This document shows, one piece after another, positions 1 through 15,261 of a DNA stretch of 64,000 nucleotides. The position numbers and the translations under genes were made by a program. The notes below the pieces were generated by a model that saw nothing but the letters and a program-made list of their open reading frames with translations, was not told where the DNA came from and did not search any database. Source of the stretch: a virus; IMG/VR virus record IMGVR_UViG_3300042516_004943, positions 1-64,000 of that record; one strand, 5' to 3'. Each line of letters begins with the position of its first letter. Positions within the stretch are counted from its first letter, which is position 1.

Positions 1-1927
1 CATTGACCAGTTTGCGAAGTTCACCGCGCAAGCATTGGTTCTTTCCAACGAAAGCAGTATAGATTTCGTCAGCATACAGAACCTCACCGAAGTTGGCGTT
101 GGATTCGATTTCCTTCAGCGCATTGGTGAAGTAAGTCTTGAAGTCCATCACCTTACTGGCTTGAGCTTTCTTGAGCGTAGGGCCGTTCTTGATGCCGATG
201 ATGGTAGGAGCAACGATGCCTTTGGTCTTGGTCAAGTCAGCAAGCGTCTTGATCTTGGCACAGCAAGACATGAGGGCAGTCGGAGAGACTTCGCAACCAT
301 TGATCTTGCCCATGAACCGCTCAATCTCAACGTAGCAGTATTTCGTAGGGTCGAGCTTGGAGAAGTCAACATCTTCTTCCTGCCAGTAGTCACTCTTGAC
401 TTTGTGATAGGACGAGAGATTTTTGGCGTTGGGATCAATCGAAAACACTTTGCTGGTGTGTTTGCTCCGATTGACCATGAGATTGTTACCATTGGCCTTA
501 CGAGTTGCGCGAGGCAGGAGAACCTTGGGCAACGTAGCCATGTCAACAATGTCAGCGTCGATCAGTCCGAGCGCATCCATCTGACGTTTGCGGTCAGCAG
601 CATTGAGAGGCGTGAACACAATCACCTTGCCGTCTTTTTGCAAGAAGGGGAAGATGTGGTTGATGATCTGATTCTGAATCTTCTTCGTGTTCTCAACGAT
701 AGTAATGTCATTGTCGAGCGTGACAAGGTGAGTCAGTTCTTCGACCTTGCCGCCTTTGACAATGTATGCCCCACCGATATAACCTTTGCGCGGAGTATAG
801 AGTCTGAATCCTTTGCTGTTGGCAAAGTTGATCGTGAAGTCTTTTATGGTCTTGCCGTTGTAATCGTAACCATTTTTGCCGCGCATAGCGTTGCACACAA
901 CATAGTATGGACTATTGAAGTTGTGCATTTCACCAAGCATACGCTTGAATGACCACAGGCTTTGTGCGCCCTTGAGTTGCTTGCTGATGTCAGCAACGAG
1001 GAAGTCACGAATAGCAAGGATGCGCTTTTTGAGATTCGCAATCGTGCGATCCGTGTATTGCAAGCCTTCACGCGAGGCAGCGATGTCGCAGTCGCCAATG
1101 GCAACGTCGAGTTCGATGTCGCAGTTAGTGAGCAAGCGTTCGATCACCGCTTCGTCGGCATTGTTCTCGTCGAGCTTGAGAGCGTCCGAGCTAATGCGAT
1201 AAGCGATATTACCCATGATAGCAAGGGCTTGACGACCATACGAGTTGCGGTCTGCTTTGAGCAAACGCCAATCGCTACCGCTATAAAGAGGATTGCGAGT
1301 CTCGTAGGTGAAGTCGGCAGCACCGCGCACAACAGGTTTGACCTTGAAGTGCTGGAACAAGTTGCGAGCAGTCGAGACGAAAGTTTCGCAGTCGGCAGGT
1401 TTTACTGGAATCACAATTTCAACACCATTTGCATCCTTGGTAGGAGCAGATGCGAGTTTAGCGATTTGACCGATCTGCGAGGGATCAATGTAAGCGTTGT
1501 AAGTAGTCTTAACGCCGTTGAGATAGCTATTGATGACAAAGTTATCACCATAAGCAAAAGCGGACTTACTGCCAAGACCTAACTGCCCGATGAGGGAGTT
1601 ACTTTTACGCTTCGTTGATTCACCATAAAAGGCATAAATCTCTTGGATGTCTTGTTCGGAAAGGCCAATGCCGTAGTCACGAATCTTGAGTTCAAGAGAG
1701 AGACGAGAAGGAAGCGTGACTTCAATCGGGCGATTGTGACCAGCTTCGGTATGTGCGTCCACAGCGTTGCAAGAATACTCGCGCAAGACTGCAAGAATCT
1801 TGTCGGAATACAACTGGTTGCGGAGGACGTTGAAGATGTGAGCAAGACCTTCTTGTTTGATGCCGAAAGAAACAGCACCTTGAATACCTTGCGTGACGAC
1901 ATTAGCTTTGGGTTGTGTGACGATCAT
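1..1927 (-). CDS. rIIA: rIIA-like protein with N-terminal GHKL/HSP90-like ATPase domain (partial, runs off left edge)
   Basis: Not in ORF track. Manual translation from ATG 1927: MIVTQPKANV...NQLYSDKILAVLREYSCNAVDAH...IRDYGIGLS...STKRKSNSLIGQLGLGSKSAFAY (GHKL N/G boxes typical of rIIA). Frame still open at the left edge; next to rIIB. Confidence 0.9.
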   Translation of the reverse strand, partial: MIVTQPKANVVTQGIQGAVSFGIKQEGLAHIFNVLRNQLYSDKILAVLREYSCNAVDAHTEAGHNRPIEVTLPSRLSLELKIRDYGIGLSEQDIQEIYAFYGESTKRKSNSLIGQLGLGSKSAFAYGDNFVINSYLNGVKTTYNAYIDPSQIGQIAKLASAPTKDANGVEIVIPVKPADCETFVSTARNLFQHFKVKPVVRGAADFTYETRNPLYSGSDWRLLKADRNSYGRQALAIMGNIAYRISSDALKLDENNADEAVIERLLTNCDIELDVAIGDCDIAASREGLQYTDRTIANLKKRILAIRDFLVADISKQLKGAQSLWSFKRMLGEMHNFNSPYYVVCNAMRGKNGYDYNGKTIKDFTINFANSKGFRLYTPRKGYIGGAYIVKGGKVEELTHLVTLDNDITIVENTKKIQNQIINHIFPFLQKDGKVIVFTPLNAADRKRQMDALGLIDADIVDMATLPKVLLPRATRKANGNNLMVNRSKHTSKVFSIDPNAKNLSSYHKVKSDYWQEEDVDFSKLDPTKYCYVEIERFMGKINGCEVSPTALMSCCAKIKTLADLTKTKGIVAPTIIGIKNGPTLKKAQASKVMDFKTYFTNALKEIESNANFGEVLYADEIYTAFVGKNQCLRGELRKLVN

Positions 1928-1999
1928 GTTAGTAGTAGGTTGAGTATTCAGAGTAGCGGTATTTGCACCGCATGGCAAGCGATTTTTTTCACATAATCA

Positions 2000-2074
2000 T
2001 AAAGCATTGAGTGTCAACCACTTACGCCTGGCCCCCAGGCCTGGTTGTGTAAGTGCTTGTTAATCAACTATTTA
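2000..2074. repeat. 75-bp tripartite element, copy 1
   Basis: TAAAGCATTGAGTGTCAACCACTTA + CGCCTGGCCCCCAGGCCTGGTTGTG + TAAGTGCTTGTTAATCAACTATTTA. Confidence 0.95.
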
Positions 2075-2094
2075 TACAATTTTTTAATCCATAT

Positions 2095-2134
2095 AAAAAG
2101 TGAGGGGTGAGGCCCACCACAAGCCCCACCCCTC
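2095..2134 (-). terminator. Intrinsic terminator after rIIB
   Basis: Minus strand GAGGGGTGGGGC-loop-GCCTCACCCCTC followed by ACTTTTT. Confidence 0.7.
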
Positions 2135-2151
2135 TGTCGCACCACCGACGA

Positions 2152-3024
2152 CTACCGCTTCCGCATGAAGCGGCCCTTCGCATCCCTCACATTATGGTAG
2201 TTGCAGTTTTTATTCGTGCAACCAGAATCTTCGTAAATGTCCTCGTAGTCCTCATCATCGTAGTCCTCATCGTAGGAAGTGAACTCCGTGTTGAGAGGCT
2301 TGCGATAGACCTGTTCAAAGTCCTTGACAACCTCGTAGCGAGCAGTCCGCAACTTCTGGCAGTCACAATCTTTCGGAACAGAAACAACATCCGAAGGATT
2401 GATCTTGACGATCACAAGGCGAGAGTTGCCGCCACCGAAAGTGCTGGCATACTCATGGCTACCAGCATGGAATCCATAAGAACAACCAACATCAGCATCG
2501 TCGCAGACTGCGTTGCGAGGCATTTCCAAGACCTCACCAACACCATTGTAGAACTTGCCGCTATGGTGATCCATGTAGTCCTCGCGCACACTCTTGTAGG
2601 CCAAGAAGTCGCCATCCTCGCAGATCGGAAGATGCTTGTGTTCAAGGAACGTATAAAGCTCCGACACAGCGCGACGAGAAGGATTCTCCATGAGTTTTTC
2701 AAGGAACCTTGCAAGCGGTTGGAACGGCAAGCCTTCGTCCATGAAGTCGAAGATGCGATCAACGACATAGTTGTGGACAGGTTCGCCATTGTAGTAGATT
2801 ACACCATCGGTAATCTCCACACCGCCGACATTATCGGCGTTGAACTTGCGGGTGATAGACTCCGACACATCGAACAGGGAGTCGAGCGTGTCAATGTCTC
2901 CAGTAGCGAGGCAAGTAATAGCCTCGGTGAAAGACGGATGATTACAAGTCATCGTCTTGGGAACTCCATCAATAACTGCGGTGATGGACTCGTCGGTTTT
3001 GATTAGTGCGTTTAGTGCTTTCAT
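2152..3024 (-). CDS. rIIB: rIIB-like protein
   Basis: ENPS...ELYTFL...LPICEDGDFLAYKSV...MPRNAV...CSYGFHAG...VKINPSDVVSVP...KLRTARYEVV are rIIB-family motifs. Confidence 0.9.
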   Translation of the reverse strand: MKALNALIKTDESITAVIDGVPKTMTCNHPSFTEAITCLATGDIDTLDSLFDVSESITRKFNADNVGGVEITDGVIYYNGEPVHNYVVDRIFDFMDEGLPFQPLARFLEKLMENPSRRAVSELYTFLEHKHLPICEDGDFLAYKSVREDYMDHHSGKFYNGVGEVLEMPRNAVCDDADVGCSYGFHAGSHEYASTFGGGNSRLVIVKINPSDVVSVPKDCDCQKLRTARYEVVKDFEQVYRKPLNTEFTSYDEDYDDEDYEDIYEDSGCTNKNCNYHNVRDAKGRFMRKR

Positions 3025-14050: not shown

Positions 14051-14058
14051 GTTATGTC

Positions 14059-14334
14059 TTACAGGCTGAGTAGTGTATCGTGTTCGTGACCGCAGTCAAT
14101 GATGAGTTTTTCCATAGCGCGAAGTTGCTCATCCGTCAGAACATTTTGTTCAGAGTCTTCTGCCTTGGTGATCGAGACATCGTCCACAACGTAGCCTTCA
14201 TATTGGCTATCGTAAGAGGTGTCGATTCTGATGTCTTTGGGGTCGATGAAGTAGTCTTCTCCATCGATGCGGATTTCAAGGGTGTCACCATAGGCAGGTG
14301 TTCCGTAGCTCATAGCGTGATTGATTTTTTTCAT
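14059..14334 (-). CDS. acidic hypothetical protein
   Basis: 91 aa; leaderless promoter. Confidence 0.7.
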   Translation of the reverse strand: MKKINHAMSYGTPAYGDTLEIRIDGEDYFIDPKDIRIDTSYDSQYEGYVVDDVSITKAEDSEQNVLTDEQLRAMEKLIIDCGHEHDTLLSL

Positions 14335-14364
14335 ATATTTAAGATAGCAGAGGTGTGGGAAAAG

Positions 14365-14550
14365 TCAAGCGATTTTTTCGATCTTTATGATCTCGCCGTC
14401 AGCAGGAAGATTCACCTTCAAGGCTTTTTCAACCTCATGGGAAACCCAAGTGATGCCATAGGCGGCAACCTCCAACGTAACGGGCAGAGGGTATGAGCCG
14501 ATTTCGGTGGAGACTGATGCGGTGACTTTGTAGGTGTTTTTCTTTTTCAT
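14365..14550 (-). CDS. hypothetical protein
   Basis: 61 aa; leaderless promoter. Confidence 0.65.
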   Translation of the reverse strand: MKKKNTYKVTASVSTEIGSYPLPVTLEVAAYGITWVSHEVEKALKVNLPADGEIIKIEKIA

Positions 14551-14587
14551 GCTTTTAGAGTATCAGAGATGTGGTGAAAGTCAAGGG

Positions 14588-14770
14588 TTATTTGTGGATT
14601 TTTTTCATCCATACGCAAGGCTCGACCCTATGGAACGAAACCTTGCAAGACCGACCAACGCGGTTGGTGAAGGTGAACGAGCGGATAGCCAGCGAAGCAA
14701 AGGTGCAAGTGGCCTTGTTGAGGGTAGCGAACTCCACGATCTCGCTGCTGGTGTAGTATTTTCTTTTCAT
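14588..14770 (-). CDS. hypothetical protein, first gene of the early region
   Basis: 60 aa; TTGCTT-16-TAGAGT-6-ATG. Confidence 0.6.
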   Translation of the reverse strand: MKRKYYTSSEIVEFATLNKATCTFASLAIRSFTFTNRVGRSCKVSFHRVEPCVWMKKIHK

Positions 14771-15261
14771 GCTTACACTCTACCACAGCCGCGCAAAAAA
14801 GCAAGGGATTTTTTTATCTTTTTTGAAACTTTTTTTCTTGACAACCACCCCCCCATTTTTGAAAAAAATTCATACGAGCGTTTGAGGTTTAGGTCGCTGG
14901 GGCCTATTTTTAAAACTCTACAACCTATAAATCTATCTCTCTTTTACTTATCAAGGTATCCATAAACCAATAAAAACCACCTATATATAATAAAAATTAA
15001 TTAAAATAACGCGGGGCTATTTGTTTATATGCTTATATGGCTATGAATAATAGTATTAGAAGAATAATGACGAGGGGAAAAATAGAAAATAAATAAAAAA
15101 AATAAATAAAAAATAAACCCTATAGGTTATGGGTTATAGGTTCATATATCCTGTATAAGTACCACTGTTTTGTTATACAAACAATTCAGATTTAATAGTA
15201 ATATTACTTAGAAAAAAAAATCGCGCCTGTTTTCGGATTGAAAATAGTGTTGCGCCGGGAT

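Follow-up and report, generated by a model that had tools for sequence, protein, structure and literature searches.

The DNA analysed here is the first 64 kb (the window) of IMG/VR record IMGVR_UViG_3300042516_004943, a 73.8-kb assembly (referred to as G0; completeness by CheckV, 49%) of a large siphovirus-like phage whose window proteins include a 2585-aa tape measure protein, TerL and a portal protein, and for which no close isolated relative was found in the phage collection. Positions 1 to 14,800 form an island of early genes with a GC content of ~47%, compared to 34% for the genome, and all genes of the island lie on the minus strand: rIIA, rIIB, a DUF932 gene, a GP88-like gene, ~25 small orphan open reading frames (ORFs; ORFans) and five tRNA genes. 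Ten copies of an element, each consisting of two 27-bp palindromes around a 23-bp GC-rich core, are spread over the island with 933–1706 bp between neighbours (Table 1). Short restriction-type words such as CCWGG (W, A or T; S, C or G; N, any base) are near-absent from the island outside these elements, and some of them are found in the element cores. Family matches of island ORFs were limited to rIIA, rIIB, DUF932, GP88-like and a weak Ogg-HhH, with ~20 other ORFs giving no match.

Loss of restriction-type words from the early island

The word CCWGG occurs 48 times in the window and 14 times at or below position 14,800, in the latter case always inside one of the ten elements; ten of the 11 CCSGG in the same region likewise lie inside elements, which leaves a single CCNGG for the rest of the island. 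In nine of ten copies the dyad falls on the middle base of a CCAGG, with ACTTAC and GTAAGT each 11 nt away from it (copy 2 has CCAGC, at 3367), and the dyad base is A in all ten, even where the neighbouring base has changed. A further CCNGG stands directly 3' of ACTTAC(R) in every copy and five copies carry a third. These counts confirmed what the first-pass annotation had read by eye from the letters, namely that CCWGG is missing outside the elements in 1–14.8 kb, with one CCSGG near 12977, that the elements carry the words at and beside their dyads in these proportions, and that CCWGG is present in the late region, where examples are real at 18970, 19252, 20599 and 22349.

With the elements masked (13,990 nt remaining, 47% GC; the ten elements together span ~750 bp), the island contains no CCWGG, compared to 22.6, 14.8, 15.6 and 10.4 expected from Markov models of order 0, 1, 2 and 3, respectively, and one CCSGG, compared to 20.2 to 2.2 expected over the same orders. 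Shuffling of synonymous codons in 28 G0 island genes gave 11.8 ± 3.0 CCWGG (minimum 4 in 300 shuffles), compared to 0 observed. From 15 to 73.8 kb, 41 CCWGG were observed and 34–70 expected, while the elements hold 24 CCNGG in their ~750 bp. The absence of CCWGG outside the elements is far beyond chance.

The first-pass annotation had noted the depletion for CCWGG and CCSGG, and a ranking of all 4- to 6-mers of the masked island added further words. GTAC (0 vs 24 expected; codon shuffle 0 vs 23.9), GGWCC (0 vs 13; codon shuffle 0 vs 10.8), CTAG (3 vs 25; codon shuffle 2 vs 21.6), CCGG (8 vs 30; codon shuffle 5 vs 17.5), CTCAG/CTGAG (3 vs 26) and ACSGT (0 vs 18) were depleted as well, with no comparable depletion in the G0 late region, and GATC, GCGC, CGCG and TCGA were at their codon-shuffle expectation in the island genes. 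The purge is thus not CCWGG-specific: CCWGG, CCSGG/CCGG, GTAC, GGWCC, CTAG and CTNAG are all near-absent. Such a word-specific, palindrome-enriched depletion is a signature of restriction-site avoidance. Selection against CCWGG in the island also looks ongoing, because the 315 words that are one change away from it would be expected to have yielded ~10 new sites on a branch of ~10% divergence and none is present. The alternative that base composition, codon usage or amino-acid content accounts for the missing CCWGG, with no selection on the word itself, is hardly credible. The tetramers CAGG/CCTG are indeed low themselves (42 vs 80 expected), but the maximal-order Markov model still expects 10.4 sites, the codon shuffle never fell below four, several unrelated palindromes are purged while others are spared, and the same pattern is seen in islands that are 20–25% diverged (see below). 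Separately, AATG/CATT is low in the G0 island (91 vs 156).

Related loci were collected from viral contigs by rIIB search (24 loci) and TerL search (22 loci), and the whole sequences of two complete relatives, G002 (166.5 kb) and G003 (178.5 kb), were analysed. Each has one GC-rich island of 15–17 kb (17–34.5 kb in G002; 17–33 kb in G003) with 12–13 homologous elements and none elsewhere in the genome, and in every relative examined the early island has 43–50% GC compared to 31–34% for the backbone. In the masked islands of G002 and G003, respectively, CCWGG (3 vs 18 and 2 vs 17 expected), GTAC (0 vs 32 and 0 vs 28), GGWCC (1 vs 17 and 0 vs 16) and CCSGG (1 vs 15 and 0 vs 14) are depleted. The two backbones are near the order-1 expectation for GTAC, CCWGG and CTAG and moderately low for GGWCC; CCSGG and CCGG are depleted in these backbones too and are therefore not island-confined there. 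Outside the elements, the island of a further relative, G011, has 0 CCWGG (5–7 expected), 0 CCSGG and 3 CCGG (11–15 expected). For CCWGG, GTAC, GGWCC and CTAG, the depletion is island-confined and recurs in relatives. ACSGT is only mildly low in G002 (8 vs 22) and G003 (6 vs 21), so that it appears to be an addition of the G0 lineage to the purged words.

The G0 island is 79–81% identical in DNA to those of G002 and G003, and is as similar to that of G003 as to those of same-backbone genomes; because G003 shares an 88% identical rIIB but a TerL of only 53% identity with G0, the genomes are mosaics of island and backbone. G011 shows the converse, with TerL 96% and the island only 71–79% identical. 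(Some TerL homologues of ~1070 aa carry intein or LAGLIDADG domains, PF14528 and PF14890; the G0 TerL gene lies at 33776–35680.) By analogy with T5, where EcoRI cuts only at sites in the first-step-transfer DNA (bioRxiv 10.1101/866236), and with Autographiviridae, where sensitivity is set only by motifs in the leading region (PMC12455610), the confined purge most likely reflects restriction-site avoidance of an exposed early region. Alternatively, the island may be a mobile module passed between different phage backbones and hosts. Its high GC content and avoidance of words would then stem from that wider ancestry, with exposure to many restriction systems, and not from the order of entry. The mosaicism of both G003 and G011 and the GC step in every relative examined speak for such a module, but it leaves unexplained why the backbone, infecting the same cells, is not purged, and the purge looks ongoing within the G0 lineage. 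We consider the module rather unlikely as the source of the purge, and it is compatible with first entry of the island rather than exclusive of it.

Table 1 Features of the G0 early island and its elements
Feature	Position	Strand	Basis or remarks
GC-rich early-gene island	1–14800	−	composition, gene families, tRNAs, word statistics
rIIA	2–1926	−	gene family match
rIIB	2152–3024	−	gene family match
DUF932 gene	4432–5220	−	gene family match
GP88-like gene	9593–10270	−	gene family match
tRNA-Met, Cys, Asp, Lys, Trp	3407–3479, 6698–6770, 7848–8079	−
Intrinsic terminator after rIIB	2102–2134	−	canonical; 15-bp stem and T run; just upstream of c1 in the direction of transcription
Intrinsic terminator after DUF932 gene	4384–4417	−	canonical; just upstream of c3
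Element c1	1999–2075, dyad 2037	−	CCWGG at 2027, 2035, 2040; between rIIB terminator and rIIA promoter
Element c2	3330–3408, dyad 3369	−	central CCAGC; CCTGG at 3359; abuts tRNA-Met
Element c3	4286–4364, dyad 4324	−	CCGGG 4314, CCAGG 4322, CCGGG 4327; between DUF932 terminator and next promoter
Element c4	5324–5403, dyad 5363	−	one flank is an 11-bp perfect hairpin (5368–5397)
Element c5	6631–6708, dyad 6670	−	~10-nt overlap with 3' end of tRNA-Cys
Element c6	8338–8416, dyad 8376	−	CCTGG 8366, CCAGG 8374, CCCGG 8379
Element c7	9271–9349, dyad 9309	−	core equals G011 core except for the dyad base
Element c8	10843–10920, dyad 10881	−
Element c9	12276–12354, dyad 12314	−	CCTGG 12304, CCAGG 12312, CCCGG 12317; gene-order break vs G002, G003
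Element c10	13641–13718, dyad 13679	−
CCWGG at or below 14,800	2027, 2035, 2040, 3359, 4322, 5361, 6668, 8366, 8374, 9307, 10879, 12304, 12312, 13677		word count
Sole island CCNGG outside elements (a CCSGG)	12977–12981		word count

Core sequences across lineages

Profile-model searches recovered the elements in every island-bearing relative, with the same flanks and different cores. Eight close records (G001, G002, G003, G012, G013, L013, L015 and L016) have a GCGCGGCGGGGCGCGCC-type core (GCGCGG-type) without any CCNGG, G007 and G008 have GAGGCCG(C)nGCGCG, and the cores of G006 are GGGGCC-rich. The G011 core is that of G0 with C for A at the dyad (CCCGG-CGG-CCCGG-CCCGG in six of seven copies), and its elements contain 20 CCSGG and no CCWGG. 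In the distant G005 (214 kb), the core is GCGGGCC-W-GGCCCGC, which places CCWGG at the exact centre of all six copies; around these elements CCWGG is not avoided (18 vs 22–25 expected). The cores of G0, G011 and G005 have the odd palindrome GGCC-N-GGCC in common, with a dyad base that varies between lineages (A, C and T). In G0 this takes the form of GGCC-A-GGC together with an inverted but imperfect repeat (gene strand, GCCTGG-N3-CCRGGY), and since these two features necessarily spell both CCWGG and CCNGG, the words are a by-product of the core of the G0 lineage. CCWGG at the dyad is therefore probably a by-product of a lineage-specific GC core and not a conserved signal, and the striking position of a site at the exact dyad can be the incidental result of a fast-evolving GC core.

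The first-pass annotation had gone further and suggested that the sites themselves could be protein-shielded decoys, here taken to be of an enzyme that recognises CCWGG, a sensor of methylation state or programmed nick or cut sites. Its observation that the early region is purged of CCWGG and CCSGG except in the elements stands, while CCWGG as a functional feature is not supported: the central pentamer is not kept in the homologous elements of G011 (CCCGG), of the eight close records or of G007/G008, an outcome that the first-pass annotation itself had named as refuting. A search for DNA methyltransferases of the C5 (PF00145), N4/N6 (PF01555) and Dam types (PF02086) gave no match above the cut-off in G0, which is 49% complete, or in three complete relatives. 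The core pentamers of G0 do spell the recognition words of Dcm/EcoRII (CCWGG) and SsoII/ScrFI (CCNGG), but the word is unconserved and has no cognate methyltransferase in the phage records searched. The invariant A at the dyad of the ten G0 copies, the central CCWGG in all six G005 copies and the apparently long-lived co-existence of core sites with the outside purge all fit a role for the sites; however, C replaces A at the dyad in the closest homologue of the core, even CCNGG is missing from the cores of eight other close records, and the surroundings of the G005 elements show no avoidance. A function of the sites is thus very unlikely.

Scans of viral contigs for the G0-type core gave nothing beyond chance with A at the dyad and only G011 with any base there, and a metagenome pattern scan gave single chance matches, with element flanks at none of 120 loci among the matches listed. 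Off-target avoidance of the element's own core motif was rejected as a cause of the purge, because G002 and G003, whose cores hold only the unpurged words GCGC and CGCG, have no CCWGG there and yet purge it, and spare their own core words. Assignment of a 6-bp core hairpin to one strand was also dropped: G-T wobble favours the gene strand at two variable columns, with a chance of ~0.25, and G011 breaks the pair.

The elements as linkers with IHF-like flanks

The element model is directional, scoring 62–77 bits on one strand compared to 24–53 bits on the other. The elements lie in intergenic DNA, two of them (c1 and c3) are preceded by strong canonical terminators, and nine of the ten are followed, 9–88 nt downstream on the gene strand and outside the conserved unit, by a sigma70-like promoter. 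They are thus located where one unit has ended and the next has yet to begin, in DNA that is barely transcribed, and this speaks for a role at the level of DNA. The Rfam collection gave no family match for the elements. A function as terminator was rejected since no T run follows the core and canonical terminators already stand upstream of c1 and c3. Shielding by a cruciform or hairpin was likewise rejected, as c7 folds no better than expected (z −1.5 and −0.07), the CCAGG at the dyad is paired in a stem and not looped out, and the flanks do not covary; single strands of c6, c8 and c9 do fold better than shuffles (z −3 to −4.7). The tRNA genes for Met, Cys, Asp, Lys and Trp also lie in the early island, and two of them end directly at an element. 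In c4 one flank is replaced by a GC-rich 11-bp hairpin (GGCCCTCGTAA...TTACGAGGGCC), and the same variant is present at the orthologous element in five relatives.

In 59 copies, the two variable positions of each flank arm showed no complementarity above expectation under either a local hairpin or one long hairpin model. Recognition of the flanks is therefore by their sequence, and the simplest reader would be a dimeric protein or one that binds in both directions. Their conserved columns, TTGAT-W-ATCAA-NN-ACTTA, amount to WATCAANNNNTTR on both strands of each palindrome, which is the published consensus of IHF (PMC10380432). In the consensus of the element, each palindrome is thus two such matches placed back to back, and all nine specified positions of the IHF consensus are conserved element columns. 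The window contains 21 exact matches to this consensus, of which 11 fall within the ~750 bp of the elements; in G0, G002, G003 and G005, match density is 6–13 per kb in elements compared to ~0.2 per kb outside, a 30- to 55-fold difference. A search of G0 and of four relatives that are complete or nearly so gave no phage HU/IHF homologue (PF00216), and a host protein would therefore be needed. We infer that the flanks are bound by a DNA-bending protein, with host IHF as the best candidate.

The elements also coincide with breaks in gene order. Of the 41 ends of alignments between G0 and three relatives, 11 fall within 60 nt of an element dyad, compared to 3.7 expected (P ~0.001), and cassette order differs between genomes, the c8–c9 cassette being located elsewhere in G002 and G003. 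The element is thus a repeated intergenic motif among small early ORFans at points of cassette exchange, similar to the promoter early stem-loops (PeSLs) of T4-type phages (PMC2839356, PMC4122927). PeSLs are likewise repeated intergenic modules among small ORFan early genes; in both, an AT-rich stretch and a sigma70-like promoter come after a GC-rich stem-loop-like core (polyG/polyC in relatives), and both mark places where cassettes were gained, lost or reordered between relatives. Unlike PeSLs, the G0 core has no T run and two elements have a canonical terminator of their own ahead of them, the distance from the repeat to the promoter outside it varies, and PeSLs have no counterpart of the two rigid 27-bp flanking palindromes. 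A second similar system is the BIME-1/RIB (RIP) of E. coli (BIME, bacterial interspersed mosaic element; PMC3333891), in which two inverted GC-rich repetitive extragenic palindromes (REPs) surround an IHF site. It too is an extragenic composite of GC palindrome and IHF consensus at the ends of transcription units, and the roles proposed for it, as architectural element or supercoil insulator, are those considered for the G0 elements. However, the G0 layout is reversed, with IHF-like palindromes outside and the GC core inside, and the element belongs to a phage, has 10–13 copies, shows no sequence similarity to REPs and has IHF sites that are putative. The elements are nearest to PeSLs and BIME-1, yet fail defining features of both.

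Probable restriction pressure and the sites kept in the cores

We put at roughly 0.6 the probability of a combined explanation, in which the island is under restriction-site selection on several words and the elements serve as linkers between early transcription units and sigma70-like promoters. The ~15-kb island would meet type II restriction enzymes of the host unprotected, so that short restriction-type words would be selected against there and not in the backbone; that it enters the cell first is suggested by analogy with the first-step-transfer DNA of T5 and the leading regions of T7-type phages. The elements would join, at the level of DNA, the end of one early unit to the next sigma70-like promoter. 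A bending protein on their flanks would form a bent complex that organises or insulates early promoters, may also serve as a recombination joint for gene cassettes, and might incidentally occlude the core. Such delimited avoidance, with restriction words missing only from an early region, is likewise seen in T5/BF23 and T7-type phages, and these regions likewise combine small early genes under host-type promoters with conspicuous conserved repeats and palindromes. Compared to these phages, nothing in G0 gives evidence of injection in two steps, of a stop signal for injection or of a terminal repeat; in the complete relatives the island sits inside circular assemblies, at least six words are purged at once, and the island lies 13 GC points above its backbone.

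Several observations weigh against this explanation. Assembly of the complete relatives gave circles, with repeats of 96 and 127 bp at the ends, so that genome ends, and with them a first-entering end, are not defined. Family searches found no known anti-restriction domain in the island genes. Late genes (15262–64000) have no Shine-Dalgarno sequence upstream of the ATG, and a proteobacterium as host is not clearly indicated. The divergence of cores between genomes may by itself partly end alignments at elements, and the 24 CCNGG in the cores, if exposed, would defeat the purpose of the purge.

The last point concerns more than one lineage. Purged words are kept in the cores of G0 (CCWGG, CCSGG and CCGG), of G011 (CCSGG and CCGG) and of G006 (GGCC); in the G006 island (L056/L057), GGCC occurs seven times outside the elements compared to 41 expected and 12 times inside them, and CCGG is absent outside (35 expected). 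Because G0 and G011 share CCSGG cores, have islands that are ~25% diverged and are both purged outside the elements, the co-existence of purge and core sites is old. In the view that we prefer, the core sites escape the enzymes, because 24 exposed sites would cost the phage any host that restricts them and thereby end selection on new sites. Occlusion of the core by the bent complex, which would let purged words survive in the cores and nowhere else, is our favoured explanation, though a tentative one at somewhat less than even odds; it keeps the protein-shielded part of the first-pass proposal. More broadly, the GC cores may be restriction-exempt pockets, hidden either by a protein complex on the flanks or by the need of CCNGG enzymes for several sites. 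This generalisation is doubtful; if true, the pockets would allow the phage to keep GC-palindromic functional DNA inside an exposed, site-purged region and would account for the survival of purged words solely in the cores of the three lineages.

An alternative to occlusion is that the sites are tolerated because the purging enzymes need two or three of them at once, like EcoRII (type IIE) and SsoII/Ecl18kI (type IIF). Cooperation between the sites of such enzymes has distance limits, and clusters of sites a few bp apart, with 0.9–1.7 kb to the next cluster, would be poor substrates, while one more site anywhere between elements would complete a pair that can be cut. Both the spacing of the elements and the change of dyad base between lineages agree with this proposal, the latter since EcoRII and Ecl18kI/SsoII flip out the central base and, besides requiring multiple sites, effectively read CC-GG (PMC4081073). 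It accounts neither for the loss of GTAC, GGWCC and CTAG nor for the GGCC pattern of G006, and for type IIP isoschizomers, MvaI and BstNI among them, one site is enough. We therefore regard it as very unlikely. The puzzle that remains is the tolerance of purged words only between two IHF-like palindromes. The purge as such is a clean and statistically strong case of restriction pressure confined to a single early block in a large uncultured phage; its word list predicts the restriction systems of the host.

The starts of the early genes have a further peculiarity. About 20 of them (3066–14770, minus strand) each have their own promoter of the form TTGNNN-N16-18-TANNNT, and because the ATG follows only 4–9 nt past the −10 hexamer, most of these genes are apparently leaderless. 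Several late genes that stand first in their operon have a TATAAT-like hexamer 6–8 nt before the ATG and may be leaderless too.

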